Source: a bacterium
Lineage (GTDB): Bacteria; UBA8248
NCBI GenBank assembly: GCA_965261085.1
Contig: OZ253442.1
Span: 896,001-960,000, forward strand
Direction of reading: 5' to 3'
DNA: 64,000 nt
Below are positions 29,945 to 62,678 of the stretch, piece by piece (the stretch's first letter is position 1; every line of letters starts with the position of its first letter). The notes under the pieces were generated by a model. The model saw only the letters and a program-made list of their open reading frames with translations, ran no database searches and had not been told where the DNA came from. A program made the translations under genes and the position numbers.

Positions 29945-30330
29945 AAAAGCCCCATAAAACAGGAAATGGGTTTCTAAATCGACATACATTCATGAAATGA
30001 CTCCTCCCTTGAGGGTCATTGGCAACTGATGAAAGAGGAAGAACCACTCCCCCCTTGAGGGGGAGTCAGCAAGGCAAGGACGGAGTCCGCAGCCGCGCTG
30101 GTGGGGGGTGAATTTATTTTGTGGGGAAACCCATATTTTAGAACCATACCCCCCACCGACTCAGCCTTCGCACAAACCGCTCGGCTTCGTCGACTCCCCC
30201 TCAAGGGGGGAGTGGTTGTTGATCTCTCTCGTCGGTTGGCGAACAGCAATCGCTTCTTCATCAGTCGTGATTGACCTCCCCGGTCGGCTACATACGCCGA
30301 ATCACGAAATCAGGACTTTTTAACAGCTCC
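29934..30330. mobile_element. MITE with IS1182-like ends (same family as 59444-59728) with nested repeats
   Basis: GGGGCTATTGAAAAAGCCCC ... GGACTTTTTAACAGCTCC; subterminal sequence matches the 59444 copy at both ends. Confidence 0.78.
30247..30275 (+). repeat. 29-nt hairpin unit (type copy)
   Basis: CAATCGC-ttcttcatcagtc-GTGATTG-AC; see finding for other copies. Confidence 0.75.
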
Positions 30331-30590
30331 ATCCGGGGCGGATTGAGGTTCTGTGCTCTTTCGGCAGCCGCGCCGTCTGCTTCGTAAGTCTTCACGGTCA
30401 TACGGGGAATGCCGCACCGGCTCCCTGACTATTGCGGCGGCTTTGATAAACATGGTATTCTTTGCTCTCTTCATCATAAATTCATACAGTTTCTCTCGGT
30501 ATTGTCTTGTTCCGAGCAGGAGGAATCGAAGGAAAGCCATATCTTCCCGATACACTGAGTGCGCCCCGCCCTTGGGGCGTTGATGAGTCC

Positions 30591-31682
30591 ATGAAGCAAG
30601 CCGCGAATCCTGCGGCCAGAGTGGAGGCTGAAATCGTGGGTAAAAGAACGAATGTCAGGGATCTTCTCTTCAAATCGGCTTTGGCGGTTCTGCTGGGAGT
30701 GGCGCTCGTCTTCACGTCCGCCACGCCTTCCGAGTCGGCCGTCAAGCGAGTCATCATCACCCAGGCGGTCGAGAGTCTCGCCTTCGTCGGCAACTACGTG
30801 GCGCGCGCGAACGGCTATTTCGCCGACGAGGATCTGGCCGTCGAGGTCATCTCCACGCGGGGCGGCGGGCCGGACATCAAGGCCAACCTCGCGGGCAAGG
30901 CGGAATTCTCCGTAGCGGCGGGCACCTACCAGATCAACGCCGTCAAGGCGGGCGGACGCCTCATCGCGGTGATGAGCTGCCTGAACCGCAGCATCGTCAA
31001 CTCCGCCATCCGCAAGGACGTCGCCAAGAGACTCGGCATCACCGCCAAAACGCCCTACATGGAAAAAATTAAGAAGATGAAAGGTTTGACCGTCGGGGCC
31101 ACGCGGCCGGGCGCGCTCACCTACAACCAGGGCGAATACTGGATCCGCCAGGCCGGCTACACGCCCCAGAAAGAAGTGAAGCTCATCGGCGCAGGCGCGG
31201 GCCCCGTGCTCATCGCGGCGCTCGAGCGCAACAAGATTCAGATAGCGATCCAGACCATCCCCGTGCCGGAGACGGCGATATTCCGGGGCCACGCCATTCC
31301 CTTCGTCACGAACTCTGCGGGCGAAGACCCGAAGATGGATCAGTTCATGATGGAGGTCCTGCTCGTGCGGCCCGATTACGCCAAGAAGAACCCCGAGACC
31401 GTCCGCAAGGTGGTGCGGGCGCTTCTCAAGGCCAACAACTGGATTTCCAAGCACACCGCCGAGGAGATTCGCGAGAAAATCCAGATTTACTTCGCCAAGA
31501 CCGACAAGCGACTGCTGCGCACCAGCATCGCGGCGGTGAAGAATGCCGTCTCGCTGGACGGAAAAGTCACCCAGCGCGCGGTGGACATCACCCAGAACCT
31601 GCTCATCGCGGCGGGCAAGCTCAAAAAAGCGTTCCCCAGGAGCGTCCTGGTATCGGACGAGTATTTGCCCGGCAAGATGTGA
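30591..31682 (+). CDS. ABC substrate-binding protein, NMT1/SsuA/TauA type (start uncertain)
   Basis: Signal peptide; YVARANGYFADEDL, KGLTVG, KNPETVRKVVRALLKA; followed by ATPase and permease. Confidence 0.88.
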   Translation: MKQAANPAARVEAEIVGKRTNVRDLLFKSALAVLLGVALVFTSATPSESAVKRVIITQAVESLAFVGNYVARANGYFADEDLAVEVISTRGGGPDIKANLAGKAEFSVAAGTYQINAVKAGGRLIAVMSCLNRSIVNSAIRKDVAKRLGITAKTPYMEKIKKMKGLTVGATRPGALTYNQGEYWIRQAGYTPQKEVKLIGAGAGPVLIAALERNKIQIAIQTIPVPETAIFRGHAIPFVTNSAGEDPKMDQFMMEVLLVRPDYAKKNPETVRKVVRALLKANNWISKHTAEEIREKIQIYFAKTDKRLLRTSIAAVKNAVSLDGKVTQRAVDITQNLLIAAGKLKKAFPRSVLVSDEYLPGKM

Positions 31683-31759
31683 GCGGCTTTTTTCTGCTCT
31701 GAAAACCGCCGGGGAAGGGCCGTTGAGTGCTCCTCCCCGGCGGTGGAGATTCATGCCTC

Positions 31760-32563
31760 GTGCCACCTATTCTCTCGATACGGAATCTGCATAAGGAATT
31801 TTTCTCGCGGGGAAACCGCGTCGTCGCCATCGAGGATTTCAGCCTCGACATCGTAGAAGGCGAATTCCTCACCATCGTGGGGCCGAGCGGCTGCGGGAAG
31901 TCCACGCTGCTCAACTGCATCATCGGGCTGGTGCACCCCACCTCGGGAACCATCAACTACCGAGACAAGAAGCTGCGCGGCATCAACACCGAGATCGGCT
32001 ACGTGCCGCAGGCGGACTATCTCTACGCCTGGCGCACGCTCATCAACAACGTCGCCTTTCCCCTGGAGATGCGCGGGGTGGATCAGAAGACCCGCCACGA
32101 GAAGGCGCGCGAATTCATCCAGCGCGTAGGCCTTGCGGGGTTTGAGGATCACTACCCGCACGAACTCTCGGGCGGAATGCGCCAGCGGGCCAACATCATC
32201 CGCACTCTTATCTACGACCCCGAGGTAATCCTGATGGACGAGCCCTTCGGACCGCTCGACGCCCAGACGCGGATTATCCTTCAGGATCAGCTTTTGAAAC
32301 TCTGGCGCGAAGCGCGCAAGACCGTCATATTCATCACGCACGATCTCGTCGAGGCCATCGCCCTGGCCGACAGGGTCGTCGTCATGACGAGCCGGCCCGG
32401 CATGCTCAGGAGCGTCGCGGAAGTGAACATCCCGCGCCCGCGCGACGTGTTCACCATTCACGGCGAGGAAGTTTTTCGCAAGACCTACGATCAACTGTGG
32501 GAGGAATTGCGCGAGGAGGTCCAGCGCAGCGAGGATTGGATGAAAAACGGGACCGCGGGATAA
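31760..32563 (+). CDS. ABC ATP-binding protein, nitrate/sulfonate type
   Basis: [37 protein letters not shown]. Confidence 0.93.
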   Translation: MPPILSIRNLHKEFFSRGNRVVAIEDFSLDIVEGEFLTIVGPSGCGKSTLLNCIIGLVHPTSGTINYRDKKLRGINTEIGYVPQADYLYAWRTLINNVAFPLEMRGVDQKTRHEKAREFIQRVGLAGFEDHYPHELSGGMRQRANIIRTLIYDPEVILMDEPFGPLDAQTRIILQDQLLKLWREARKTVIFITHDLVEAIALADRVVVMTSRPGMLRSVAEVNIPRPRDVFTIHGEEVFRKTYDQLWEELREEVQRSEDWMKNGTAG

Positions 32564-32589
32564 AATACGCGGATGAGGAGGGGGTTGCC

Positions 32590-33687
32590 ATGGTCGACAT
32601 GATCGATAAACCAGTGAGCGAGGACAAGGGATCGAGCGAGCCGGTGCAGAGCGTCCAAGAGGTTCTCGCCCGGATCAAGCTGCCCAAGTGGGGCGCGTTT
32701 CTCCTGACGCTCCCCCTGCCGGGCGTTCCGCAACTCTGGCGAGGGGACTACCTGAGGGGCGCGCTTCTGCTGGGCCTCACCGTGGGCGGCTACATGGCCT
32801 GTTCGGTCACGGGCATGTTATTTCACGCCATCGCGCTCGTGGACGTCTCCATCACGCGAACCGGGCGCATCATCAAGAACTCGCGCTTGCGCATGTTCGC
32901 CTACCGGGCCTTTTTCGTGGGCGGCTTTCTGGCCATGTGGGAGTTGAGCGCCTGGGAAATCGGCCCCAAGCAATGGCTCTGCGTGGACCCGTTCTGGTTC
33001 GGCTCGCCCGTGCGCGTCCTGAGCTATCTGGTGGAGATAACGCTTTCGGGCGCCGTCTTCATCGATACGTGGACGACGATGTACGAGGCGTTCCTGGGCT
33101 ACATCATAGGCGCGGCTTTGGGTGTCGCCATGGGCTTCGTGCTGGCGCGGCTCGAGACCCTGGCCGAGATACTCGACCCCTTCATCGTCGCGGTGAACGG
33201 CATCCCGCGCGTGGCGATGGCGCCGATTCTCATCATCTGGTTCGGTATAGGCGTGGAGTCCAAAATCGTGCTGGCGGTGAGCCTCGTGCTCTTCCTCACC
33301 TTCATGAACACATACTCGGGCCTCAGAGGCGTGGACCCCAACCTCAAGAACCTGGCGCAAGTAATGGGCGCGAACGAGATGCAGGTTCTCTGGAAGGTCA
33401 CGCTGCCCGCAGCGATGCCCTGGATATTGACGGGCCTCAAGATAGGCGTTCCCTTCGCCGTCGTCGGGGCCATCCTGGGCGAGTTCATGGCGGCGAGCCA
33501 GGGGCTTGGCTTCATGATTCAGCATACGAGCAACCTGTTCAACATCGCGGGTTCGTTCGCGGGCCTTATCCTGCTCATGTTCATCGTGCTCATCGCCAAC
33601 TCGGCGGTGAACTGGCTGGAGCGCTATCTGCTGCGCTGGCGGCCCAAACAACAAGCCGCAGGCGAAGGCGCAACAGAGGTGTATTAG
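32590..33687 (+). CDS. ABC permease, SsuC/TauC type with N-terminal extra membrane segment
   Basis: PRVAMAPILIIWFGIG, LPAAMPWILTGLK, GEFMAASQGLG. Confidence 0.9.
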   Translation: MVDMIDKPVSEDKGSSEPVQSVQEVLARIKLPKWGAFLLTLPLPGVPQLWRGDYLRGALLLGLTVGGYMACSVTGMLFHAIALVDVSITRTGRIIKNSRLRMFAYRAFFVGGFLAMWELSAWEIGPKQWLCVDPFWFGSPVRVLSYLVEITLSGAVFIDTWTTMYEAFLGYIIGAALGVAMGFVLARLETLAEILDPFIVAVNGIPRVAMAPILIIWFGIGVESKIVLAVSLVLFLTFMNTYSGLRGVDPNLKNLAQVMGANEMQVLWKVTLPAAMPWILTGLKIGVPFAVVGAILGEFMAASQGLGFMIQHTSNLFNIAGSFAGLILLMFIVLIANSAVNWLERYLLRWRPKQQAAGEGATEVY

Positions 33688-33727
33688 GGTCGATTCTCCC
33701 TGATCGGCCGGAAAATCTCTCTTTGGT

Positions 33728-33766
33728 TCTGTAGTGACAGCCCCTCCTTGGGGCTGTCACTACAGA
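33728..33766. repeat. Perfect 17-bp-stem GTAG-type palindrome (may also terminate transcription)
   Basis: TCTGTAGTGACAGCCCC-tcctt-GGGGCTGTCACTACAGA. Confidence 0.75.
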
Positions 33767-33802
33767 CCTGTGTGTCCGCCCCGGTTTTCTCTCCCATTGC
33801 TA

Positions 33803-33951
33803 TGTTTCTAAAATAAAAGCTCCCCCCACCGGCGCGGCTTCGGACTCCGTCCTCACCTTGCCGACTCCCCCTCAAGGGGGGAGTCATTTCATAAGCATAT
33901 GTCGATTGAGAAATTCATTCCCTGTTTTTGGGGGACTTTTTCAACAGCCTC
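33803..33951 (-). mobile_element. Truncated copy of the 59444-type MITE
   Basis: Near-identical reverse complement of about 59444-59592; one TIR only; flanked by TCCTC. Confidence 0.8.
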
Positions 33952-34093
33952 TCCTCGCTCGGAATTGACCCTCAAGGGGGGAGAGTGATTGGGAAACAGC
34001 GTTTTTTGGAAATTCCTCTTTCGAGGTCGGGAACAAGCTTGCTTCCGCCTTCCGCACGGGCGGGCACGGGGGCCCGCCTCTACCTCTACACCC

Positions 34094-34882
34094 CTATGCA
34101 GACGTATCCGGCGGTGGAGTGACGCCGATTTCCCCGCGCAGGAGGCGGCGGAACGCGATGCGTCTCTGAACCTCCCGCACGAAGGCGCTTACCACGCGCC
34201 TCCATGTCACATACATCACACCGTCGGCGCTCATTTGTTTTTTGCGCGCGAGTTTGCGGTCGTGTTCGATCTGGGAATCGTCCTGCTCGTCGTGCGAGAC
34301 GACGGGCGGGTCGATATAGAACACGTTCAGCCCGTTTTCCCAGAAACGGGAGAGCGCCTGGTCGATTTCCCGCATCATCCTGGGCGTATTTTCCAGAAAG
34401 TGGCGAGCCGCATCGCGCGTGATGACGTAGCCGTAACCGCCGTAGTCGTGGTAGCGCACCCGCCCGACCCGGTGCCCCGTCCCGAGGCGCTCGCACGGGA
34501 TGAAGGTCCTGGACGAGCGACGGTTCAGCTTCACGACGTCAAAGGCGAACGGCCTGCGTTCCAGCGCGTCCAGCACCTTGGGCAAGTCCACTGACAAGAC
34601 GGCGTCATCCTCGAAGATCGACGCGGTTTCCGGGCCGTTCTCCACGATTTCCCGCATCACCTGGCGATGACTCATCCAGCAGGCAATTTCTGCGTCGGCC
34701 TGGGGCCAAAGACCCAGCCTCCGCCTGGTTTCCCTGTCGACCTGTGCGTAATGCTCGGGCGTGAGTTCCTTGGCATCGACGGCGGGGTGAAACGTCGCTT
34801 CCAGACCCAATGACGCGAATTGCTCCTCCATCCGGCGGCGGCGTTCCCCGGCTCTTTCGAGATTGATGACGAACAGCTTCAT
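34094..34882 (-). CDS. Glycosyltransferase family 25
   Basis: FVINLER...RR, AVDA, EIACWMSH, IFEDDA, YVIT. Confidence 0.92.
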   Translation of the reverse strand: MKLFVINLERAGERRRRMEEQFASLGLEATFHPAVDAKELTPEHYAQVDRETRRRLGLWPQADAEIACWMSHRQVMREIVENGPETASIFEDDAVLSVDLPKVLDALERRPFAFDVVKLNRRSSRTFIPCERLGTGHRVGRVRYHDYGGYGYVITRDAARHFLENTPRMMREIDQALSRFWENGLNVFYIDPPVVSHDEQDDSQIEHDRKLARKKQMSADGVMYVTWRRVVSAFVREVQRRIAFRRLLRGEIGVTPPPDTSA

Positions 34883-34956
34883 GGTCGGGTCCCCTCGTGG
34901 TGGCGGATATCTTTACTCATCCGCCGGACAATTCTGACGCATATACTCCGGTATTT

Positions 34957-36153
34957 TCAAAGCGCCTGCCGATGGCGGCGCTCGCGCACCAGGTCGAGAA
35001 TCAGGCGCTCATACTGATCGACCGAGGCGTCGAGCGAGAACTCCTGCGCCCTTGCCATCAGCACCTCCTTCTCCGGCGGGGAATCGAGAACACGCTCCAT
35101 GGCCGCCGCAAGCGCGGTATCGTCCCCCACGGGCGCGAGCGGTCCGAATCACCCGTTATCCAGAATCTCCGATGCGCCAGCTTGGCAGTTCGTGCTCACG
35201 CACGGGCAGCCGCACGCCATCGCCTGAATTAAAACACCGGGTAAACCCTCATACCTGGAAGAGAGAACGAACAAAGAGACGCGGCTCATGAAGGCGTAGG
35301 GGTTTGAGACCCAGCCGGGCAGGGACACTTTTTCCTGCAGCCCCAATTTGCGGATCATCTTCTCCAGCCTCTTCCGCCAGCTTCCTTCTCCGAGAATAAT
35401 CAGGCGAACCCGGCGATTCCGGGAGACTTGCCGAAATGCCCGTAAAAGGGTCGGAAAATCCTTGACTCTCGCCAGCCTTCCGGCAGCCAGTATGACCGGG
35501 GGACCATCGTCGGTCATCCAGGGATGGTCGGGGACGACCGGGGCCAGCTCGGCGATGTCTGTGGAGACGACGGGATTGTAGATTCGGGAAATTCTCTTGC
35601 GGGGGATTCCAAGTTCGAGGGCGAGGTTGTTGGCGACGCCGTCCGATACGGCAAGAATGTGATCCGCAATCGGGAACAAAATAGGGTAAAGGTTACGAAA
35701 CCTCCATTTTGTGTGCCTGAGAAAGATACGGACAGTCGGAATTGTCACAGGGCTCAGTCTGGTGAAAGAAAGCGCCATCAACGTCGTTGATTTGGACCTG
35801 GGGAGTGAAGGGAGAATGCAGTCCGGCCGTTCTTCGTCGATATAGGCGGCTATGGAGCGGGCGTCCTGCAGTAAACTTTTTCGCAGAAACTTGAGTATTC
35901 TCAAACCGAAGCGCCGCGTGAGTTGGATGCGGTCGCGAAAGTCATTTATCGGTTCTTGGTTCAATACGAACAGGCGCGCCTCAGGGGGGATTTCGTCCAC
36001 AAGTGTGTCTATTTTTTCGAATACGAGAATATCCACACGATACCCACGGTCAATCAGCCCGCGCGCCAGTCTCAGTACGGAGCGTTCCGCGCCGCCGCCA
36101 CCCAAATGAGGGATGGCGAGAGCAATCCGCAGGAATTTTTCAGGTTCGTTCAT
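34957..36153 (-). pseudogene. Glycosyltransferase family 4 with internal TGA at 35149-35151
   Basis: GGAER, AGRL..VKDF, LSSRYEGLPGVLIQAMACG; after ILDNG* the same frame continues FGPLAPVGDDTALAAAM... for 63 codons to TGA at 34957. Confidence 0.85.
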
Positions 36154-36251
36154 TTCCGATTTTCCGCACATACCCACCCAAGGCGCGATGTTCTTTCGAG
36201 ACGACGCTTCTCATTACCTCGGAATTTCGTATCGCGCATTCTGGCCTCGGC

Positions 36252-37028
36252 TTATTCTGAATCGCCGCCGGTCCCGGCGCTTCGCACCTTGCGATAATAG
36301 TATATGTGCTTTAGCGCTTCTTCCCTAAGATTACTTAGGATGCGGCGGCCCAGTTTCCAGAAATTCCGGCTCGGCCGGGAATCCGCCGCTTCCTGAACGA
36401 AGGAATGGCCGTCCGCCTCGTTTATATGGAACACGACGGGCGTTTCCAGGGAGAAAACATCCATTCCGTTTTCCCAGTATGCGTGCAGCGTATGATCGAT
36501 CTGATGCACGATTCTTGGACAATTTTTCAGAAAGCGGCTCGCTCCTTTTTTCGAGACCACGTAACTTTGCGTCCCCCAGTCCGAAAACTTCGTAATGCCC
36601 AACCGGACGCCCGCATCGACTCTCTTGAGCGGCGCAAAGGGTTTGTCCGTATCGTTTCGGTGCAGAAAAACGAGGTCGAACTCCCAGCCCGAGGCGTAGA
36701 GCCGCGCAAGCGCATCCAGCGCACCGCCGATTTCGGGCGCGAGCGTTACGTCGTCCTCGAAGACGGCTACGAGCTCATCCTCTCCCGCCGCGACGCTTCC
36801 GAGCGCCTTTCTGTGGCTGATATAACAGGCGATCATGCCGTCCGAGAGCGGGCGGCGGCCCTCCCTGTCGCGGGATATCCTGTCCACGAGGGCCCAGTCT
36901 TCATCATTCAGATCGCGCCAGTCGATGGCGTCAAGAATCTCGAATTCCATGCCTAAAGCGTTGAATTGTCTTCGCATCGCACGCCGCCTGTCTTCGGCGC
37001 GCGGCAGGTTGATGACGACGCACTTCAT
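36252..37028 (-). CDS. Glycosyltransferase family 25 (paralog of 34094-34882)
   Basis: VVINL..RR, AID, IACYISH, VFEDDV, YVVS, IDHTL...WENG. Confidence 0.9.
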   Translation of the reverse strand: MKCVVINLPRAEDRRRAMRRQFNALGMEFEILDAIDWRDLNDEDWALVDRISRDREGRRPLSDGMIACYISHRKALGSVAAGEDELVAVFEDDVTLAPEIGGALDALARLYASGWEFDLVFLHRNDTDKPFAPLKRVDAGVRLGITKFSDWGTQSYVVSKKGASRFLKNCPRIVHQIDHTLHAYWENGMDVFSLETPVVFHINEADGHSFVQEAADSRPSRNFWKLGRRILSNLREEALKHIYYYRKVRSAGTGGDSE

Positions 37029-37122
37029 CGCGTGCGGGTCATGGGCCACCGTTTTGCTCCTTCGCCTCAAATATCGCTTCCGGGATGGAAAACGACGAAT
37101 GCGCCCGCCTTTCGTTTTTGAT

Positions 37123-37253
37123 CGTCATTCCGGCGCATGCCGGAATCTAGAGCCGATGAGGAAGGGCACGTCACGGCCTTTGATCGCCTCGATGATCGGG
37201 GCGGCCCAATGGAAAAACCGAAAAATGGATTCCGGCTTTCGCCGGAATGACGG
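37123..37253. repeat. CGTCATTCCGGC..GCCGGAATC (CGTC-type) REP inverted pair
   Basis: CGTCATTCCGGCGCATGCCGGAATC ... GGATTCCGGCTTTCGCCGGAATGACG; related pairs at 61745-61904 and 62405-62566, a half at about 59820. Confidence 0.85.
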
Positions 37254-37514
37254 GGGGATGCGGAACTAAAGAGACGCAAGATTCCTGCCCCCACGCCGGA
37301 AACCCCCCACCAACGCGGCTTCGCGTTGACTCCCCCTCAAGGGGGGAGTGATTTCCGACCCTTCTACGAGGGCCGTTCACGAACAGCCCCTACAAATCCA
37401 AAACCCCCTCCCGTGAAAGGCAACCCCCAACCCCCTTTATCGGGGCTGTTGAAAAATCCTCGTCGGCGGGGTTTTTGGTTTCGGAATTTCTTAGTTTAAG
37501 GCCTTTCCTTCCGT

Positions 37515-38246
37515 CTAAGTTGTGTCCGCTTCGTGTTTGGTATTTCCATGCTCTGCACGATAAGCGCGCCCGGTATCCACCACCACAATGAGCCCTGCGC
37601 TCTTTTCCAGTCTCAGGTAGGCATTCTTGAAGCGTTTACAATACCGGAACAACTCTTTGTTGTAGGGGCCATAATTCATGGAGGCCTGAGATTCGGGATC
37701 AAGGTCGAGGTTCATCAGTTCTGAATATTGATTGGCGAATTCCCGCTCAACGAAACATGGGCAAAGGGTAAACCAAGGGAATCTCGTCCTGAATGGGGTA
37801 TAACGAATTCTCTTGCTTCTCGTTTTGAATTTTCGTCTACGAGTTCTCCAGTTTTTCATGTCGTTCTGGTGGAACATCGTAACCATTTTGGTCCTGCAAT
37901 CGAGAAGCTCAAATACTTCTTCAGGGTCAACCTTCGCAATCGCCAGCCAATCATCTTCAAGGTGAAGCGCAACCGGAGATGATATTTTCGACCAGAGGTT
38001 CTTCACCGCCAGACTGAACCCCGGAGTTTCCGGCATGGATAATTCGGCGTCCGGGAAATAGTGCAGAATCATATCTCGACACGTCTCCCCGTCTTTCGTC
38101 GTCCCCATGTACGGGTCGATGTTTGCGAATACCTGATGGATTACAAAGCCGGGGAATACGTGTTCCTGAAAAGACTTGAGCGTGAGTTCAAGGAGTTTTG
38201 GTCTGCGACCAGAGATCAAGGTAAGGTCAATTTCTGTGATCTCCAT
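37515..38246 (-). CDS. Putative GT-A-fold glycosyltransferase-like protein
   Basis: GRRPKLL..TL.SF, NIDP, LHLEDDW (DxD-like); located in the glycosyltransferase cluster. Confidence 0.55.
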   Translation of the reverse strand: MEITEIDLTLISGRRPKLLELTLKSFQEHVFPGFVIHQVFANIDPYMGTTKDGETCRDMILHYFPDAELSMPETPGFSLAVKNLWSKISSPVALHLEDDWLAIAKVDPEEVFELLDCRTKMVTMFHQNDMKNWRTRRRKFKTRSKRIRYTPFRTRFPWFTLCPCFVEREFANQYSELMNLDLDPESQASMNYGPYNKELFRYCKRFKNAYLRLEKSAGLIVVVDTGRAYRAEHGNTKHEADTT

Positions 38247-38310
38247 GTTGCTTCCCCTTTACTCATCCAGCGCCAAGGGTATCTGCTCGCTCAGTTTTGT
38301 TAATGCCCTT

Positions 38311-39230
38311 TTAATCAAGATGATATGGAGAACAAATAACCATTGAGTGATTTTTGTGAGAAATCTTATCGACCAAGGCTAACTTGAAGTCCTTCTTCCA
38401 GAACCCGATTTCTCGCAACTCGTAAATGAATTCGTAATTGTTTTTTTTTAAAATTCGATAGCCGGGTTTGCTCCATCAGATATGTTCGAGGCCAATATTT
38501 CACAAGCAATAACCAGCTTATGCTTATTCAAAATATTAACGGCTCCTTCGAGACATTCCATTTCATGGTTTTCCACATCGATCTTTACGAAGTCGATACC
38601 TGCGCAACGATTCACCATTTCCATGTTATCCAGTAAATCGACATCAAATTCCACACAATTGAATTCATCATATGGAGTTGTTGGACTTTTAGCAATAATC
38701 ACTTGACTAGCATCTGTTATAGGTTCTATTGCGCGCACCTTTTCATAGACATTCGAACATCCCAGGTTGACGGGAAAAACATTGCCCGCTAGTTTCGCAT
38801 TGATTTTCAGAAGTTGGTATGTTCTCGGGTGAGGCTCAATAGCAATTACCTTGTCAAAAAATTGCGCAAAATATAGCGCGTGGGTTCCGATGTGTGCCCC
38901 GATATCCAGACATACCGCCTTACTTTTAAGTTTCGGGAAGACTCTCAATGCCAGAAAATCTAATTCTTTAATTTCATACCACCCGTTCATAAGTAGCATC
39001 GCCGAAGAATGATCTGATGAAAAACAAGCAACCTTGGGATATTTTTTTGCATTTTCCTTAATCGCTTCCGCTAAGTACTTGTGCGTTATACGCCTTGCTC
39101 CTTTTATTGGATGTAATACAAGGCGCAGTAGATTCCGTACAAATTTTGTTCCGTTCTTCAAGAGAACTCCAAACATTGTTTTATTCTGCATTGTCTGCAG
39201 ATGCTCTAGGTTTCGCATCATCTTTCTCAT
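38311..39230 (-). pseudogene. FkbM-family methyltransferase, frameshifted at a T4A9 tract (38441-38453)
   Basis: LDIGAHIG, IAIEPHP, FVKIDVENHE; annotated stop at 38448, but one extra T gives IEFLKKNNYEFIYEL... to TAA at 38311; visibly AT-rich. Confidence 0.8.
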
Positions 39231-39400
39231 CGCTTCCCCTCGACTGGTCCCACTCCGCCTCCGTGGGCGGATATTAGCATTTCTTCGTCGATGGGGTAAC
39301 GAGGCGGGCGGCAAACCGCAATCGCAGTTCCTCCCTTATCGGTCGGAACTGACTTCATCAGTCGCGATTGACCTCATCGGTCGGCAAACGCTCGCTCCTC

Positions 39401-40922
39401 GGGGTTGTTGAAAAACCCCTGACTCTATGCTTGGATGTATGGATATTACGCGCCCGAGAAGGGAATATCCGCGATGTTGGGACGCAAGAACCGCGCCCAG
39501 ATGGATTTGTTCATCACCGGTTCGCTGGAGAGGTTGATTCCCGAGGATCACATATTGGCCCGCGTGAACCGCGTTCTGGACCTGAGTTGGCTGCGCGAGG
39601 AAGTGGCGGATTGTTATTGCGCGGACAACGGCCGTCCTGGGATCGACCCCGAAGTGGCGGTTCGGTTGATGTTGGCGGGCCTTCTGCTGGGGTTCGTGCA
39701 CGACCGTCGGTTGATGCGCGAGGCGCAGGTGAACATCGCGATCCGGTGGTTCATCGGTTACGGGCTGGAGGATCGGCTGCCGGATCATTCGAGCCTGACG
39801 CGGATACGGCAGCGCTGGGGGGAGGCCCGGTTCCGGGAGATATTCCGCCGCACGGTCCGTGCGTGCCTGGATGCGAAGGTGGCCAAGGCCGAAGTCGTGC
39901 ACGTGGACGCCTCATTGATCCGCGCGGACGTGAGTTGGGAGAGTCTGGTGGAGCGTCACGTGGACGAGGTGATAGCGGAGAACCCCGTCGAGGAGGAGGC
40001 CGGGAAGAAGGGTGGAGGAGGCCGCCGTGGCGGGGGTTCCGGGAAGGTGAGCCGGACGGACCCGGACGCGCGGCTGGCGAGAACGGGCGGGGGATTCGAG
40101 CCGAGCTACAAGCAGCACGCTGTGGTGGACGACACGCGCGGGGTGGTGCTCGACGTATCGGTGACGGAGGGTACGGTGAACGAGCGTGAGGTGCTCGAAT
40201 CGCAGGTGGAAGCGGTATGCGAGGTATCGGGGCGCGCGCCCGCGATGGTGACGGCGGACTCTGGCTACGCCTACTCGAAGGTCTACGCGGCCCTGGAGCG
40301 CCGGGGTGTGGCCGCGCTCATTCCGGCGAAGAGGGAACCCTCGCAGAGCCGTGTTCCGTTGCGCCTGTTCCGCTACGACGCGCGGCACGACATCGTGAAG
40401 TGTCCGCGCGGCAAGATACTGAGCCCCCGTCGGCCCGCAAAGGGGGGGCGTTATTATCGTTCGAAGACCCGTGATTGCGCGGGCTGCGCGCTTCGCGAGG
40501 ATTGCCTGCCGAAGGCGTGGTCGAGCAAGGTGGTGTTGGTTCCGCATGCGTATCCGGCGCTGTTGCGCGCGCGCCGGCGCCATGCGCGATGGAGGGAGGA
40601 GGAGCGGCGGATGTACCGGCGTCATATGTGGCGCTCGGAGGGCTACCACGGCGAGGCGAAGACCTGGCACGGGCTTGCGCGCGCGGTGCGGCGCGGTCTT
40701 GAGAACATGAAGATACAGTCCTACCTGACGGCGGCGGCGATCAACCTCAAGCGGCTCTCCGCCGCACTTGCTGCAAGGTTATTCGCCCTCTGGAGGGCCT
40801 GGTCGGCCCGGGAAGAGCCTCTGTGCGTCCATCGCGGCCTCGCAAGCTGCGTGGGCTTCCTGTCCGCCGCCGCGTGACCCTCCATACCGCCCGCTCCCGA
40901 AACCGGGTTATTCAACAACCCC
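39401..40922 (+). mobile_element. IS1182-family insertion sequence, 1522 bp
   Basis: IRL GGGGTTGTTGAAAAACCC / IRR GGGTTATTCAACAACCCC (17/18); 5-bp direct repeat TCCTC at 39396-39400 and 40923-40927. Confidence 0.92.
39474..40877 (+). CDS. IS1182-family DDE transposase
   Basis: LIPEDH, GRPGIDP, PDHSSL, HVDAS, SRTDPDA, ADSGY, C-P.G...C..C...C, E...EAK..HGL.RA..RG. Confidence 0.92.
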   Translation: MLGRKNRAQMDLFITGSLERLIPEDHILARVNRVLDLSWLREEVADCYCADNGRPGIDPEVAVRLMLAGLLLGFVHDRRLMREAQVNIAIRWFIGYGLEDRLPDHSSLTRIRQRWGEARFREIFRRTVRACLDAKVAKAEVVHVDASLIRADVSWESLVERHVDEVIAENPVEEEAGKKGGGGRRGGGSGKVSRTDPDARLARTGGGFEPSYKQHAVVDDTRGVVLDVSVTEGTVNEREVLESQVEAVCEVSGRAPAMVTADSGYAYSKVYAALERRGVAALIPAKREPSQSRVPLRLFRYDARHDIVKCPRGKILSPRRPAKGGRYYRSKTRDCAGCALREDCLPKAWSSKVVLVPHAYPALLRARRRHARWREEERRMYRRHMWRSEGYHGEAKTWHGLARAVRRGLENMKIQSYLTAAAINLKRLSAALAARLFALWRAWSAREEPLCVHRGLASCVGFLSAAA

Positions 40923-41437
40923 TCCTCGTTCGCGTTTGACCCCGCATTTGCCGTTATCGGGTCTTTTCGGGATGCGGCAGAATACGTCTCGTGAAGGGCA
41001 GGCCTTCGCGTGAATTCGACCGAGGACGAGAAGCAATGCAAATAATCAAATTTAATGAAAATATCGATAAATTCACGGGGTTTTTCAATAAAAAACGGGC
41101 CATGATAATCCTTGTAAGCTATTGTAATATAACATTAAATGATGTGAATATGAGCGTGGTTGACTCAGATATGACCGCGAAAAGTTTTTCAAGCCTCCGC
41201 AATTGCCCGCAGTTGCGATGACATAGGCGCGATTCCGCGCACCTCCCGGCATCTCCCCGCAAGCTCTCTCCGTCCGGCATTACCCTGAGAGACCCGAGGC
41301 CCCATCCTCTGAAAAGCCGGGATGGATTCTCGCGCCGAAATAAGGGATAATGCGGGATTCCAACAACAGGGACATTACTTGAGTTTCCGGTTCCCAAGAA
41401 ACAAGGGACATATCTTTTCCAACCAGGAGGAAAGCAG

Positions 41438-42409
41438 ATGAAAACATGCCGTACCTTGTGCTTCATTCTGATAGCTGTTTTCGCCGTCGCATTGCCGCTG
41501 CAATCCGCTTCGGCCGCCTATCCCGATAAGCCGATTCAGTTCATCATTCCCTTCGGCGCGGGCGGTGGCGCGGACATCGAGGGACGCCTGCTCGCCAAGG
41601 GGATGGCGAATGTGCTCGGCGTTCCCGTGGTGGCCATCAACAAACCGGGCGCGGGCGGCGCCGTCACCTACACGTTCGTCAAGAACTCCAAGCCCGACGG
41701 CTATACGGTTGCCTGGAACTCCACGTCCATCCTCACCTCCACGAACATCGGCAACGTGCCTTGGGATTACACGGCGCTCGACCACATCGGGCGGGTGCAC
41801 TTCCAGCCCCTGGTGGTGGCGGTGAACGCCAAATCGAAGTGGAAGACGGCGAAGGCTTTCGTGGCCGACTGCAAGAAAAAGCCGAACACGCTCAAGATCG
41901 GCCACGCGGGCACCGGCAGCACCACCCATCTCACGGCCGTCGTGTTCACGAGCATGACGGGATGTAAGGCCATACTCGTTCCCCTGGGCGTCAAGCGCCG
42001 CAACGCAGCGCTTCTGAGCGGCGAGGTGGACGCCATGGGTGCGCCTCTTACGGGGGCGATTCGTCTGGCGAAAGCGAACAAGTTCCGCATCATCACCCAT
42101 ATAACGGGCAAGCGGAACCCAGCGATCGCGGACGTGCCCACCATGAAGGAACTGGGCTACGACATCTCCTTCGATCACTTCCGCGGTCTCAGCGTGCCCA
42201 AAGGAACGCCCGCGGCCGTGAAGGCGAAACTCGTCGACGCCATGACGAAGGCCGCCAACTCGGCGGCTTTCAAGAAATTGGCCAAGACGAAAGGCTTCAC
42301 GATCGACCCGAGCGGGCCGAAAGAGTTCGGCATGATGCTCGCCAAGCGCGACAAGATTGTCGCCGACATCATGAAGGCGACGGGTATCTACAAGTCCAAG
42401 AAGAAATAA
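41438..42409 (+). CDS. tctC: Tripartite tricarboxylate transporter substrate-binding protein (Bug/TctC family)
   Basis: YPDKPI..IIPFGAGGGAD, NKPGAGG, PDGYT, DVPT.KELG. Confidence 0.92.
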   Translation: MKTCRTLCFILIAVFAVALPLQSASAAYPDKPIQFIIPFGAGGGADIEGRLLAKGMANVLGVPVVAINKPGAGGAVTYTFVKNSKPDGYTVAWNSTSILTSTNIGNVPWDYTALDHIGRVHFQPLVVAVNAKSKWKTAKAFVADCKKKPNTLKIGHAGTGSTTHLTAVVFTSMTGCKAILVPLGVKRRNAALLSGEVDAMGAPLTGAIRLAKANKFRIITHITGKRNPAIADVPTMKELGYDISFDHFRGLSVPKGTPAAVKAKLVDAMTKAANSAAFKKLAKTKGFTIDPSGPKEFGMMLAKRDKIVADIMKATGIYKSKKK

Positions 42410-42992: not shown

Positions 42993-42998
42993 TGCAAG

Positions 42999-53768: not shown

Positions 53769-53816
53769 ACTTCTGAATCGTACCGAGGGTGAAAAGCCAC
53801 AAGGGAACCGGCGTTC

Positions 53817-54302: not shown

Positions 54303-54303
54303 G

Positions 54304-55794: not shown

Positions 55795-55835
55795 TCAGCC
55801 ATTTCATTTCGCCGTACGGAGGGAGGCATCGAACC

Positions 55836-56972: not shown

Positions 56973-56991
56973 GGCGGTTCCAGGAGACGGC

Positions 56992-58380: not shown

Positions 58381-58676
58381 TTTGAACACCTCCTGGAAAG
58401 CGCGGGGTGTCTTCGCGCCGCCGCGCTGCGCATCTTCGGGGTGAGCCGCTGCCTGTTGGATGAAGGTTTGATGATGTGAGTGATGTCCATAAAAAGGCCA
58501 ATCCTCGAAACATGGGCGAAACAAAACAGAAACGACAATTTAACCGAACTGCAAGATTCCCGTAAAGAAACCCCTCTATATTTCTATCCTGTCAACGGAG
58601 ATTATAAGTGTTCATTTTATTTTCCGGCCGCACGAGGCGGCCGTTGTAACGAATATATGAAAGAGAGATTGGAAGA

Positions 58677-58847
58677 ATGAAGAGCAAGAAGTTGATGGGC
58701 GCGGAAAAATTATCTCGCAGGAAGTTCCTGAAAAAAGCGGGAGCAGTGGGCCTCGTGGCGCCCGAACCCTGGAGCAAGCACACGAGTCCGGACAAGAGCT
58801 GTGACTGGGTAAATCACCAGGGAACATATATGAAGACGACGACCTAG
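58677..58847 (+). pseudogene. Remnant of a Tat-exported substrate-binding protein, probably urea-binding UrtA (N-terminus fused to C-terminus)
   Basis: 56 codons: SRRKFLK twin-Arg motif joined to GLVAPEPWSKHTSPDKSCDWVNHQGTY, which resembles UrtA C-termini as I recall them. Confidence 0.55.
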
Positions 58848-58954
58848 TCGCAAGAACCGCCCAGGGGAAGCCGAACCTGGCTTCCCCATGGGCGGCCCAA
58901 AAAAGAATACGTGAATCGCGCAAATACCGGCCGGAATACGGCGAAGGAGGGGGT

Positions 58955-59411
58955 ATGCAGCAAGCCGGCGGCGATTCCGCGTGGGAGCATCGCCGGGATT
59001 ATTTATTTCTCGCGTCCTTATTCTGGTTTTCGTGCTTGGCTTTGGCTTGGCGGCAAGAGGAGAAGCGCAAACCGAAACGTTTTCACCGGCAATCCAGGCG
59101 GAAGTCGCACAACCAGGATCGAAGAATCGAAAGAAAAGAAGACGCGCTGCCCTCAGTCTCGCGAAGCGCCTCGAGCCAAAGCTGCTACCCCTTCTTTTGG
59201 CGCTTCGCGAGGGCAGCCTTTATCAGTGGCAGCCTGGATCGGGCGGAGAGCGGGTCTGGCGGGCGGCTGCACGCGGCTCACAGGCCCCGGCGCGCTGGTC
59301 CGCTGGCTGGCGGATTCGCCCGAAGTCTTAAGGAAGACGTATTTCGAAATCTGGAACGTCGCCAGAAAAACGCTTTTCGACCGAGAGGCGACGCCGCTCA
59401 GGAAGTTCTGA
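58955..59411 (+). pseudogene. Chimeric remnant: UrtB-like N-terminus joined out of frame to a UreD-like C-terminus
   Basis: Signal peptide plus LLPLLLALREGSLY (frame of 58981) up to about 59230; then GGCTRL..GALVRWLADSPEVLR...IWNVARKTL...PLRKF* ending 59411. Confidence 0.5.
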
Positions 59412-59443
59412 GGGGGAGGCGGTGCGCGTTTTCCTTCCCCTAA

Positions 59444-59728
59444 GGGGCTGTTGAAAAAGTCCCCCAAAAACAGGGAATGAATTTCTCAATCGACATATGC
59501 TTATGAAATGACTCCCCCCTTGAGGGGGAGTCGGCAATGCGAGGACAGAGTCCGAAGCTGCGCCGGTGGGGGGAGCTTTTATTTTAGAAGCATACCCCTC
59601 ACCGCATCAGCCTTCGCGCAAAAAACGCTCGGCTTCTGCGACTCCCCCTCAAGGGGGAGTCATGTCTCCTACCTCTCCAGTCGGCTCCATACGCTGAATC
59701 ACGAAATCATAACTTTTTCAACAGCCCC
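59444..59728. mobile_element. Complete 285-bp MITE with IS1182-like TIRs carrying an ACTCCCCC-type REPIN
   Basis: GGGGCTGTTGAAAAAGT ... ACTTTTTCAACAGCCCC (17/17); flanks CCTAA/CCAAA. Confidence 0.88.
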
Positions 59729-59732
59729 CCAA

Positions 59733-59758
59733 AGGGCGGTTCGCGAACCGCCCCCTGC
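59733..59758. repeat. GTAG-type REP palindrome
   Basis: GGGCGGTTCGCGAACCGCCCC; relatives at 37369-37393, 62317-62386, 62582-62607, about 34058-34083 and about 33765-33782. Confidence 0.7.
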
Positions 59759-59948
59759 AAAAAGGGCGGGTCGCAAAAATGTGACCCGAGGCCTCGTGTA
59801 TGAGAAATGGTGTTTTTTTTCATTCCGGCGGAGGCTGGTGACAACCGACAGGTTGGCCAGAACCGATGAAGGGGGATATTTTCCGGCATTTCATTACGTC
59901 TTTGATCGAGCGGGTTTTCACCGGGTTCGACGGCGGAAAGAACGAGGT

Positions 59949-60908
59949 CTATTCGACGCGCTGCCTCTTCGCGCCGAAAGAGCCCACGATTTCGCCGCGT
60001 TCGAAGACACCCACGACGCCGGCATGGCCCTCTCCGACGAAGCGGCCCTGAATGTAGTCATTGCTTCCGGTCGGCTTTTCCCCGAATGCGCCGCCGTGGA
60101 GCGAGACGTTCTCCCAAGGCGGGATACTCCCGCCATCTAGCTTGGCGCCGGTTCCGAGAGCTTCAAGATTGTCGAAAACGATGTCAACGTCCAGATTGGC
60201 GAAGTCGTCGATGACGAGCGTCGCATCGCCTTGCACGAACTGGCCGCGGGTCACGAAATCGCTGACGTCCACGCCGATCATCACCCCTTTCCATGTGGCG
60301 GACATGCCCTGCGCGGCCGTCGGCGCCGTGGCGCTCGCCACGCCGAGGGCGCTTGAGTCGAAGACGTCGCCGGGTCCGATGGGCCGGCCCTGCCCGTCCC
60401 TGATCGTCAGGGTGGTCCGGTTGACGAAGAAAGCTCCCTCGTCGAGCCAACCGCCGTAGAACCTTGCGCTGAACGCCCTTTCATCGGTGCGCTGGCCGAA
60501 GCCTTCCACGAGAGGGATGCTGCGGACGGTTTCGGTCTGTGGCTTGAGCGTCAAGGAATCCTTCAGGCGCTCGGCGAAATGTTTACTTCCGAAGTCGGAT
60601 TCGGGGTCGTCGAGAGCGCGCTCCAGCGCAGCTTCCAGACCCTCGGGAGCCGGGCTTACGCCGCAGACCGCGCCTTCACACTTGGTAAAGGTGAGCGACG
60701 ATGCTCCATCGAATCGAAACACGTGCTGATCGCTTGCAAGCGTCGTGGTGGCGGATTCCACTCTTGCGAGTGTGCCGAGCTTGACCTGCTCCACCGTCCG
60801 TGCGGTATCGAACTCCATCCACGCCATGTTCTCCTGATTCCCGGCGCTGCAACCGGAAAGAACAAGCATCGCGGCTATCGCAATCAACGTGGTTATGGTG
60901 CGCATCAT
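59949..60908 (-). CDS. Lipoprotein with transferrin-binding-protein-like C-terminal beta-barrel
   Basis: LSGC lipobox; SATWKGVMIG, IQGRFVGEGHAGVVGVFE...IVGSFGAKR C-terminus. Confidence 0.7.
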   Translation of the reverse strand: MMRTITTLIAIAAMLVLSGCSAGNQENMAWMEFDTARTVEQVKLGTLARVESATTTLASDQHVFRFDGASSLTFTKCEGAVCGVSPAPEGLEAALERALDDPESDFGSKHFAERLKDSLTLKPQTETVRSIPLVEGFGQRTDERAFSARFYGGWLDEGAFFVNRTTLTIRDGQGRPIGPGDVFDSSALGVASATAPTAAQGMSATWKGVMIGVDVSDFVTRGQFVQGDATLVIDDFANLDVDIVFDNLEALGTGAKLDGGSIPPWENVSLHGGAFGEKPTGSNDYIQGRFVGEGHAGVVGVFERGEIVGSFGAKRQRVE

Positions 60909-61160
60909 CCGGTTCCCCTTGAATTTACTCTACTCGGCGGCCGTTCGCGTTTTCGGACCGCCTCCGTCACGGGGGCGCGCTCTCGTTCCGGGGCGCATCG
61001 CCCGGAGAGGAGACGGTGGGCAAGAGCGGACCACGAACACTGAACATGCCGTACCCGTCCGGGGCAGGTCTCGCCCCGGCCCTTGATGAAATTATACGGA
61101 GTTTCGTCGGGGATTTCACGAAAAATGAATTGCCCGCGCACAGGGGTGGCTCTCTAGCTG

Positions 61161-61200
61161 CGCCTGCCCCTAGAGTGGGCCGAAATCGGGCGGGGGTATG
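61161..61200 (-). repeat. 40-bp direct repeat of the amidase 3' end (partner at 62670-62709)
   Basis: 38/40 identical; both copies encode IPPPDFGPL*. Confidence 0.9.
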
Positions 61201-61247
61201 AAGCGCGTCGGCCGCTCTGCGGTACGAAAGTATTTGTAAGCCATCAC

Positions 61248-61276
61248 TTGACAATTCTGCCGCCTACGGTTAGCTT
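61248..61276 (+). promoter_or_regulatory. Sigma70-type promoter of the higBA module with overlapping inverted repeat
   Basis: TTGACA (61248-53)-17 bp-TAGCTT (61271-76); imperfect IR TTGT-AAG..CTTGACAA at 61234-61254. Confidence 0.65.
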
Positions 61277-61282
61277 GCGTCA

Positions 61283-61349
61283 ATGATTGGGAGCATTCGG
61301 ATGGTACGACGACGGCGCAGTGGACGTGGACATAGAGGACTATCACTGA
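61283..61349 (+). pseudogene. higB: higB toxin remnant (internal deletion)
   Basis: MIGSIR start joined out of frame to FGWYDDGAVDVDIEDYH*, the typical HigB C-terminus; TGA overlaps the higA ATG. Confidence 0.75.
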
Positions 61350-61654
61350 TGATCGAGAGACACCCTTCCATCGACCCGGCGCATCCGGGGGAAATCCTGC
61401 GCGAGGACGTCCTGCCCGCCCTCGGGGTGAGCAAGACGGCGGTGGCCGCGGCCCTCGGCATTTCCCGGCAGACGCTCTACGACATCCTGAACGAGAAGCA
61501 GCCGGTTACCGCCGAGATGGCGGTTCGCTTCGGCAAGCTCTTCGGCAACGGCCCGGGCTTTTGGGTCAACCTCCAGCGCAACTACGATCTGGCGCGCGCG
61601 GAACGTTCGGTGGATGTCAGCGGAATACCGACGCTCGAAGCGAGGAATGCTTAG
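61349..61654 (+). CDS. higA: HigA-family addiction-module antitoxin (HTH-XRE)
   Basis: HPGEILREDVL, LGISRQTL..ILNEK..VTAEMA.R, FWVNLQ..YDL. Confidence 0.93.
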   Translation: MIERHPSIDPAHPGEILREDVLPALGVSKTAVAAALGISRQTLYDILNEKQPVTAEMAVRFGKLFGNGPGFWVNLQRNYDLARAERSVDVSGIPTLEARNA

Positions 61655-62678
61655 GATGTAGTAGCGCGACCTGTGGGACGACCCCGAGGAGGGGTTCGCC
61701 CCTACGGAACGCGAACCGTCGCTACGGCAATCGCGGATTTCGCTCGTCATTCCGCCGAAAGCCGGAATCCAGAGAATTTACCCTTCGTCTTTCATTTTCC
61801 GGCTTCATCCCCGCTTCATCGAAGAATAATGAAACCCCATAACGCATCCACATTATCGGTTCTGGCCAACCTCTCGGTTGTCACCCGCATACGCCGGAAT
61901 GACGAGCGAGAACCATTCCTCCCTTGGGGGTTGGATGCGTGATGCGAGATTGGAATCACTCCCCCCTTGAGGGTCATTTCCGACCGAAGAGGGAGGGAAT
62001 GTCGCAGAAGCCGAGCGTTTTGTGCGAAGGCTGATGCAGTGGGGGGACGATTTTCAAATAAAACTCCCCCCACCGGCGCGACTTCGGGCTTCGCTCTCGT
62101 CTTGCCGACTCCCCCTCAAGGGGGGAGTGATTCTCGCCTTGACTCGTCTTGCCATTGGTCTTCCCGAGGAGGAGAATTGCAAACTCTCCTTCACCGGTCG
62201 GGTCTGACCCCCACCGACTCGCTTGCGGGCGTGCGCCCTTACCTCGTCGACAATCCCTCATTCTTCAATCGGGCTTGACCCTCAAGGGGGGAGTGGTATT
62301 GCAACTCAGCGGTATTGTAGGGGACTACCCTTCTGGGTAGTCCCTGCCCCCGTGGTTGTCCCCCGCAGGACAGGCACAGGGGCTACGGCGAACGTGGTTT
62401 CGCTCGTCATTCCGGCGAAAGCCGGAATCCAGAGCCGATGTGGGTGGGTACATTCCGGTATTTCGTTCCGTCTTTGATCGAGCGGGAATAACGGCGAAAA
62501 GCAAAAGGCGAAACCCTGGATTCCGCATTCCCTCCCGCCTTGGTCGGAAATGACACCGGAATGACGGCCAAAACGGAAATCGGGCGGACACATAGGTCCG
62601 CCCCTACGACGTGTGATCACTTCTAATCGTTATCCCGAATTCATCCCCCCAAAAACACCCGAGCGATTCCGCCTGCCC

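Follow-up and report, generated by a model that had tools for sequence, protein, structure and literature searches.

Copies of the unit in the window

The window, by which we mean the whole stretch of 64,000 nucleotides analysed here, corresponds to positions 896001-960000 of a single 4.27-Mb contig with 58.7% G+C. Its genome is designated G000, while relatives and comparison genomes carry labels in the style of G001 and their sequences carry L numbers. The subject of this work is a hairpin of 29 nt, hereafter the unit, which recurs in the window among genes that are ordinary. The unit is a structure-defined hairpin family and not a product of chance: its strict pattern matches six times in the window, where 100 shuffles averaged 0.17 matches and never exceeded 2. 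This is the enrichment over shuffled sequence that a first-pass annotation, made from the letters alone, had proposed to look for. That annotation had listed eight full or split copies, all of which are present where it placed them. It had also reported a right half at 33952-33969, which exists and abuts a terminal repeat of insertion sequence (IS) type, and a minus-strand copy at 30015-30043, which is degenerate as claimed. The copies and the elements that adjoin them, among which are repetitive extragenic palindromic sequences (REPs) and mosaics that resemble miniature inverted-repeat transposable elements (MITEs), are listed below; scores in bits are those of a covariance model of the unit.

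30015..30043, minus strand: degenerate copy with recognisable loop and right arm but arms that are not complementary, beside a MITE-like mosaic end; no model match at E<=10
30045..30214, no strand: MITE-like mosaic bounded by palindromes that are 'empty' at either end (CGA-CTCCCC-CTCAAGGGGGGAGTG), from reading of the sequence
30247..30275, plus strand: intact unit, stem CAATCGC/GTGATTG; 42.2 bits, E 1e-9
33945..33969, plus strand: right half of a unit from the apical loop on, directly after an IS1182-type terminal repeat at 33930-33949; 11.3 bits
39319..39372, plus strand: host unit CAATCG...TTCATCAGTC GCGATTG AC, broken by a nested unit, with four host bases gone and no duplication; the same nested arrangement is found in the closest relative (L074)
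39325..39353, plus strand: the nested unit, intact, CAGTTCC/GGAACTG; 41.5 bits
39373..39384, plus strand: partial unit, the 3' part of the loop and GG; like pieces occur in other arrays
39385..39400, plus strand: left part of a unit split by an IS, CAAACGC and the loop as far as TCCTC
39401..40922, plus strand: IS1182-like IS within the apical loop, with a 480-aa transposase at 39435-40877 (DUF772, DDE_Tnp_1_6, DDE_Tnp_1)
40923..40940, plus strand: right part of the split unit, TCCTC GTTC GCGTTTG AC; 11.8 bits
61957..62129, no strand: MITE-like mosaic with a unit at its left end and the palindrome ('empty') form at its right end
61973..62001, minus strand: intact unit CATTCCC/GGAAATG in the mosaic end slot; 44.9 bits
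62180..62208, plus strand: intact unit CAAACTC/GGGTCTG, followed by a 42-nt mosaic module; 31.4 bits
62251..62279, plus strand: intact unit CAATCCC/GGGCTTG in an end slot ahead of CCTCAAGGGGGGAGTG (62280-62295); 43.8 bits
62518..62565, plus strand: CGTC-type REP with arms at 62518-62525 and 62556-62565, its loop replaced by a unit and one A
62526..62554, plus strand: intact unit CATTCCC/GGAAATG in place of the REP loop; 38.2 bits

Structure and covariation of the unit

Across the whole of G000 the strict 29-nt pattern has 73 matches, 62 of which form six or seven of the seven stem pairs. A scan anchored on the loop, with at least six pairs and the ends left free, gave 160 sites against 18-43 in five block shuffles, and requiring the closing pair and the tail as well left 110 sites (85 distinct). 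Ten of these were removed by eye as chance matches, and the 100 units retained (75 distinct) are the set on which the later counts are based. When only the loop was used 137 sites were obtained; at least five of the six flanking-arm pairs are Watson-Crick in 64 of them, and a shift of one arm by 3 leaves none of the 137.

The alignment of 66 copies is gapless and the fold consists of a 7-bp stem, a 2x2 internal loop, a 2-bp inner helix and a 5-nt apical loop. Paired cells make up 91.8% in this alignment against 70.7 +/- 1.0 in shuffles, the observed value being reached by none of 500, and controls with slid partners are 15-43% paired. Both-sided changes were seen at all nine base pairs, which bears out the earlier claim that the stem varies with compensatory changes. 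The 66 rows were picked for at least six of the seven outer pairs, and therefore only the inner helix and the loop-only scan are independent of that selection. The inner helix covaries as CT/AG, CC/GG and GC/GC, and its pair 11-17 is UA in 33 copies, CG in 26 and unpaired in 4.

What had been taken for a 13-nt loop is indeed a conserved pyrimidine core, TC-NN-TCNTC-NN-TC, but one that holds this covarying helix (NN/NN) and only then the apical loop TCNTC. On the opposite strand the TC/TC pairs read as tandem GA/GA. The constant features of the unit are the core, the closing C-G pair and a tail AC that is followed by C, the latter (position 30) being present in 87 of the 100 units. The base that precedes the unit (position 0) is a purine in 89 of the 100, and the preceding bases read C-R-R, or Y-Y-G on the reverse strand. 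The idea that length and ends stay fixed has to be given up for the ends: subfamilies with GAATTCC/GGAATTC (11 copies), CGAACCC/GGGTTCG (8) and TGAACGC/GCGTTCG (6) exist, and therefore the CA/TG ends are not invariant but covarying. Among the 75 distinct units there are 37 different loops and 46 different stem pairs in many combinations, and a single loop was found with as many as eight stem pairs.

Predicted energies for the single-strand folds lie between -1.4 and -7 kcal/mol, and the minimum-energy fold is the proposed one in five of the eight strands folded. The purine strand was the more stable in three of four units folded. Among 675 cells the non-Watson-Crick ones comprise 29 AC/CA, 18 GT/TG and 29 others; the mismatch counts therefore favour neither strand of the unit, and nothing points to a one-strand RNA role for it. 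No Rfam family matched the 64-kb window at the gathering score, and the unit is not among the RNA families that Rfam lists.

Distribution in the genus and beyond

The covariance model has 139 matches in G000 at E<=1 and 114 at E<=0.001, and about 40 further units, beyond these roughly 114 intact ones, are split by an IS or a MITE. For comparison we counted matches in 22 genomes of the same genus and 18 genomes of other genera, scoring at most 150 candidates per genome, and therefore the high counts are lower bounds. Sixteen of the 22 congeners have 54-139 matches at E<=0.001, while the other six (G001, G007, G009, G010, G016 and G020) have 0-9. Outside the genus a single genome of the 18 gave any match, and it gave two.

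In a scan with the pattern over one genome per species, and among the matches listed, all seven pairs are formed in 50 of 66 matches from the genus and in none of 29 from other taxa, four of the latter having six pairs. One unit-like copy lies on a contig of a metagenome-assembled genome labelled as Pseudomonadales, and no cyanobacterial match was found among the matches listed. Judged by these matches, the unit appears to be specific to one subclade of an uncultured genus of Nitrospinota. In the literature on palindromic repeats in Nitrospinota, searched apart from the supplements of the cited papers, the exact unit was not found in print. None of the papers found on sponge Nitrospinota that mention a transposase and a repeat appears, by title and abstract, to treat such repeats.

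Host repeats, junctions and gene context

The unit lands inside other repeats, as had been noticed from the letters alone. It is found in CGTC-type REPs, where it occupies the loop, in the mosaic, where it takes the left arm of the palindrome at the end, and in other units, in the loop or the right stem. At the junctions four to seven host bases are missing and nothing is duplicated; where an empty relative could be compared six or seven bases were replaced, in agreement with the first-pass description of a replacement without duplication. The absence of a target-site duplication at four kinds of junction, together with arms that vary in sequence, sets the unit apart from MITEs.

The MITE-like mosaic measures 170-230 bp. 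Among the 143 ends of the mosaic the terminal palindrome (CGA-CTCCCC-CTCAAGGGGGGAGTG) is found at 78, a unit in the slot of the left palindrome arm at 32 or more, and a different hairpin, likewise ending in GAC, at about seven. A second small hairpin, of about 26 nt with the stem CGGACTTTCC/GGAAAGCCCG, ends in GAC and occupies the same mosaic slot as the 29-nt unit; its sites in G000 are 132133, 1214628, 1701640, 2002965, 2539105, 3681761 and 383006. All 17 genomes rich in units contain the end motif of the mosaic, and none of the six unit-poor genomes has more than one copy of it. The unit had been described as a solo element, which is true of about half of the copies but not of the rest, since 44 of the 100 are joined to modules of the larger mosaic and identical copies almost always have more extensive flanks in common.

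Neighbouring units less than 400 nt apart form 12 direct, 10 divergent and no convergent pairs. Arrays hold left partials (stem, loop and 1-4 nt) and right partials (loop, stem and AC) with periods of 20-24 nt. The 100 units are divided 54 to 46 between the replication strands, with no leading or lagging bias, and in 27 tandem gene contexts nine have the orientation of the genes and 18 the opposite one, so that no consistent direction emerges. Of the 59 units outside crude open reading frames (ORFs), 21 lie between convergent genes, whose spacers make up 21% of the intergenic bases; the placement of the other 41 'inside' crude ORFs is not to be relied on, as spurious ORFs run across the repeat nests.

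Filled and empty sites in relatives

Contrasts between filled and empty sites were drawn from the 100 units of G000 and 56 units of G008, compared against 1.2 Mb of G008. The presence of the unit differs between relatives whose flanking genes are 97-98% identical. Orthologous contrasts are few because the intergenic repeat nests are mostly unalignable at that level of gene identity, even between the closest genomes. At the 62526 site G000 has a unit and an A where G008, G004, G021 and G014 have a plain CGTC REP with a 7-nt loop. The host unit at 3046379 of G000 is intact, whereas its counterpart in G008 (L357) contains a nested unit, 30 bases replacing six. In addition, G004 (L220) has a second unit fused into the right stem of one that G008 has in intact form. 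Copies of the GAATTCC subfamily always stand behind the left portion of a CAATTCC unit, and a G008 paralogue has that unit whole.

Three units are kept in orthologous places (29/29, 29/29 and 27/29 positions identical). In one orthologous end slot of the mosaic the units differ at 7 of 29 positions, including a compensatory pair, within flanks that are 92.5% identical, and the slot seems to have been overwritten by a different unit. Among ten sets of identical units seven share larger flanks, and the other three are identical pairs with unrelated flanks; since identical copies mostly share larger flanks, recent copying has been mostly passive.

A flank-based search for orthologues of the G008 and G004 units mostly gave no collinear pair and yielded one usable region, G004 against G008. 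A presumed empty site at G008 L192:2195, compared with the 513-kb region of G000, was set aside as its left flank is too diverged. Logan contigs from four runs over 29500-41500 break at the repeats and gave neither a filled nor an empty allele at the level of the unit. The segment 29925-30432 comprises a mosaic and a unit and has IS-type terminal repeats at its two borders. In its place G008, G004 and G006 have 106 nt of unrelated sequence, and this short allele was also seen in one public run. The segment looks like cargo between IS-type terminal repeats.

An IS1182-like element in the apical loop

The IS at 39401..40922, which we take to be IS1182-like from the Pfam domains of its transposase, lies within the apical TCNTC of a unit and is bordered by a 5-bp duplication, TCCTC, at 39396-39400 and 40923-40927. 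Its terminal repeat GGGGTTGTTGAA... is common to the IS copies and to short MITE derivatives, and both insert in the apical TCNTC with a 5-bp duplication. A right half-unit beginning at the apical pentamer abuts 40 of 163 terminal-repeat ends (IS and MITEs together) as against 123 of 20000 random positions (0.6%). The hairpin unit is thus the favoured landing site of the element.

G000 has 25 matches to this IS, 21 of which are at least 99% identical and therefore indicate a recent expansion. The element is found in 13 of the 16 unit-rich relatives and in none of the six unit-poor ones, the three unit-rich genomes without it being assemblies of 190-470 contigs. Specific insertion into a palindromic repeat is also known for the REP-targeting ISs (IS1397, ISKpn1, IS621 and others), which according to Tobes & Pareja 2006 (PMC1525189) belong to the IS3, IS110, IS4, IS256 and IS5 families. 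The present element differs from those described there in its family, in its choice of an apical pentamer, in the 5-bp duplication and in that about half of its ends are in units.

Candidate enzymes and coexisting hairpin families

Six genes are flanked by units on both sides. Four of them are ordinary (cytochrome c', an AtzD-like amidohydrolase, PIG-L and a chromate transporter), one is an artefact ORF in a repeat cluster, and the sixth is a low-complexity ORF without a family that we took as spurious. Two genes of the HUH type resembling REP-associated tyrosine transposases (RAYTs) are present in G000, one intact at 484942-485445 and one at 4074400-4074947 that is disrupted by a repeat inside the gene. 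Both were missed by a search with PF01797 (Y1_Tnp) at E<=0.001 and were found by tblastn with the RAYT of a relative. In G013 three tandem copies of the unit with a 35-nt spacer (L196 1060-1217, period 64-65 nt) lie downstream of a RAYT-like gene, the product of which carries a repeat-derived insertion.

Elements of the IS110 family occur in 15 of the 16 unit-rich relatives and in none of the six unit-poor ones. As mobiliser of the unit IS110 was rejected, the four G000 copies (at 280, 2516, 3785 and 3790 kb) being neither in units nor beside them; three of the four have a similar left flank, that is, a conserved target. Since these copies sit in another target, the correlation with units is put down to general IS richness.

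Canonical REPs of the CGTC-1 type, in agreement with their definition in PMC3733652, are also found in G000, with CGTC, an 8-bp stem ATTCCGGC, a 4-nt loop and a CCA tail, the C of the tag being present in 101 of 118. Two of them are in the window, at 61739-61772 and 62402-62436, and there are 52 exact copies in G000. Unit-rich genomes have 44 to 306 CGTC REPs each, and G007 has 86 of them but only nine weak matches to the unit.

Comparison with known repeats

The known kinds of repeat that come closest to the unit are CGTC-type REPs and the small dispersed repeats (SDR) of cyanobacteria, and it is the CGTC type that it resembles most, as the first-pass annotation had recognised from the reverse strand. 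The 2013 survey of CGTC REPs (Di Nocera, De Gregorio & Rocco, PMC3733652) gives them the tag CGTC (variants TGTC and CCTC), a stem of 8-9 bp starting with two A/T pairs, a loop of 4-5 nt and a 3-nt tail that is mostly CCA. They have no dedicated transposase there, and are sometimes inside other palindromes and interleaved with other repeats as in the mosaics of Neisseria; the survey's text makes no mention of the phylum Nitrospinota. Set against this description, the unit is likewise a short palindrome with a variable stem and GTC beside a stem that starts with A/T pairs (reverse strand GGTC-AA...TT-G), and it likewise has no associated transposase gene. It differs in a reverse-strand tag N-GTC where N is G in 87 of 100 copies, T in 4, A in 8 and C in 1, and in that the C of GTC is paired and covarying, whereas the CGTC tag is unpaired. 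Moreover it has a 7-bp stem around a structured 13-nt core, with an apical loop of 5 nt and the A/T pairs after the tag mostly present, and its tail is not CCA but Y-Y-G on the reverse strand. In G000 canonical CGTC-1-like REPs coexist with the unit and host it.

The GTAG REPs and the REPINs (REP doublets that form hairpins) are linked with RAYT transposases (Bertels & Rainey 2011, PMC3116915). Like the unit, these are extragenic hairpins of high copy number that vary between relatives and are presumably recognised in the form of folded single strands, and both kinds are IS targets. The unit differs from GTAG REPs in having no GTAG tag (it ends CA... and ...GAC-C) and in not flanking RAYT genes, and it lacks the inverted-doublet organisation of REPINs as there described. 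By its features the unit thus falls outside the definitions of CGTC REPs and of GTAG REPs, yet it works like them.

The SDR are said to have been described by Elhai et al. in 2008 as repeats of 21-27 nt with a shared hairpin, compensating changes and copies nested in one another. According to PMC5861425 and PMC2884548 the SDR of Nostocaceae are repeats of about 20 bases that are possibly mobile, and the palindrome HIP1 has been reported to be an insertion site of SDR5; the former source reports no SDR-like repeats outside Nostocaceae among HIP1-rich cyanobacteria. The unit belongs to a different phylum and has a different sequence, the comparison being one of descriptions only.

In the bacterial interspersed mosaic elements (BIMEs) of E. 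coli and the corresponding intergenic mosaic elements (NIMEs) of Neisseria, small hairpins alternate with conserved modules in intergenic nests that vary between strains. The mosaic of the unit is built in a like manner, with small hairpins that alternate with other conserved modules in nests (in part after PMC3733652). It differs in its sequences, in its MITE-like terminal inverted repeats and in that the hairpin is optional in a defined slot. The statement that no description of the unit is known therefore needs to be divided: the 29-nt family is apparently undescribed as such, the exact unit not having been found in print, whereas the kind of repeat is already known from the CGTC REPs (PMC3733652) and from the SDR cited in PMC5861425.

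Origin and spread of the unit

We are inclined, with a confidence slightly better than even, to regard the unit as a very small REP-like DNA hairpin repeat with a loop that a protein reads, which moved as a discrete piece into hairpin tips and which now spreads mainly passively. A protein would recognise the folded loop, as suggested by a loop that is identical over up to eight stem pairs and by the exact unit ends in unrelated hosts. The unit would be, or would once have been, moved as a discrete piece into single-stranded hairpin tips, a movement to which the few filled and empty contrasts between relatives point. Today it would multiply mainly as a passenger of the mosaic and by local partial duplication with periods of 20-24 nt, together with overwriting between copies.

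Several observations weigh against such a protein-mediated origin. Only two clean orthologous contrasts were obtained, plus one appended copy and one doubtful case, and in the nested G008 case guest and host share a rare loop ending in CACTC, and therefore a local duplication fits it as well as an insertion does. The target junctions are not uniform, the left one lying anywhere between stem position 4 and a point 4 nt inside the right stem. The hairpins are weak and several fold no better than shuffles. A strand bias might be expected if a mechanism like that of IS200/IS605 acted on single-stranded DNA of the lagging strand, and the 54 to 46 split shows none. Finally, the first-pass annotation had the unit inserted by a trans-acting single-strand enzyme and suggested to look for the gene that it flanks most often, RAYT and IS110 included. 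This part of its proposal found no corroboration: in G000 no transposase-like gene is flanked by units in the REP-RAYT manner, both RAYT-like genes are flanked by GTAG REPs and not by units, IS110 is placed elsewhere, and no enzyme tied to the unit was found. The stronger version, in which a hairpin of 29-30 nt transposes itself, or did so recently, as a folded single strand that an enzyme outside the REP-linked families cuts and pastes as a discrete piece into hairpin tips (REPs, MITE ends and its own copies), is in our opinion rather doubtful. If true, the unit would be among the smallest bacterial mobile DNA elements known, the first of its kind outside cyanobacteria and a dedicated landing pad of an IS1182-like element.

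It is possible, if on the unlikely side, that the unit is not self-mobile but a module of a BIME- or NIME-like mosaic, spread by riding on MITEs, by hairpin slippage and by gene conversion, with stems kept complementary by arm-to-arm copying in repair or template switching and not by selection through a protein. The joining of 44 of 100 units to mosaic modules, the larger flanks common to seven of ten identical sets, the orthologous slot that seems overwritten by a different unit, the perfect co-occurrence with the mosaic end motif and the lack of a detected enzyme are all what such a module would leave behind, as are arrays full of left and right partials with periods of 20-24 nt, which often share rare loop variants with a neighbour. 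More difficult to accommodate are the exact CA...GAC(C) ends in hosts as unrelated as a REP loop, a mosaic end slot and other units, and the three identical pairs with unrelated flanks. Furthermore one identical 13-nt loop is found over eight stem pairs that differ by several compensatory changes, and arm-copying alone is therefore an insufficient explanation.

There is, in addition, a small chance that the RAYT (HUH Y1) transposases of the genome cross-mobilise the unit as a second, untagged REP-RAYT substrate. G000 has two RAYT-like genes, one of them intact, the three tandem units of G013 (L196) are 240-390 nt past the 3' end of a RAYT gene, and RAYTs act on folded single strands according to PMC3733652. 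However, the REPs at both G000 genes are of the GTAG type and the unit has no GTAG tag, Y1_Tnp matches are also present in the unit-poor G001 and G007, and there is no replication-strand bias. We consider it equally improbable that the host maintains the hairpin because it has a function, as a site for a nucleoid or RNA-binding protein or as an RNA hairpin at gene ends, with its spread being secondary. A loop strongly conserved over variable stems would suit a function of this kind, as would GGA/GGAGG-like loops on the purine strand of many copies and the 21 of 59 units outside crude ORFs that lie between convergent genes, against 21% of intergenic bases. It is at odds with the lack of a consistent orientation to genes (9 same, 18 opposite), the wobble-type mismatches on both strands (29 AC/CA vs 18 GT/TG), the six genomes of the genus with 0-9 copies, the copies freely split by IS and MITE insertions, and a weak stability with no T-run.

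A loop-reading protein with mainly passive spread, the reading that we prefer, bears on the question of how REP-like repeats without a RAYT, such as the CGTC type and the small dispersed repeats, arise and spread. The genus offers a compact test case for this, with a sharply conserved, structured loop, clear slots in which the unit is either present or absent, three hairpin families (GTAG with RAYT, CGTC and the unit) and an active IS that targets the apical loop and has 21 copies of 99% identity or more. It could be useful in finding the loop-reading protein and in studying hairpin tips as insertion hot spots. In annotation, the unit accounts for a large part of the intergenic DNA that is hypervariable in these sponge-associated genomes.

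Other repeats beside the units

GTAG-type REPs (hairpins of the form GTAGGGG... / ...CCCCTAC) are present at 62315-62390 and 62586-62616, in the same intergenic nest as units. Two further motifs recur beside unit arrays upstream of genes, one being CCCGCATTTGC, with 54 copies in G000, and the other an AT-rich block, GAAAATATCGATAAATTCACGGGGTTTTTC. Sites of these motifs are at 40941-40975 and 41040-41095 of the window and at 787.7 kb, 1291.9 kb and 2026.5 kb of G000. They may act as promoters or in regulation, or represent one more repeat.

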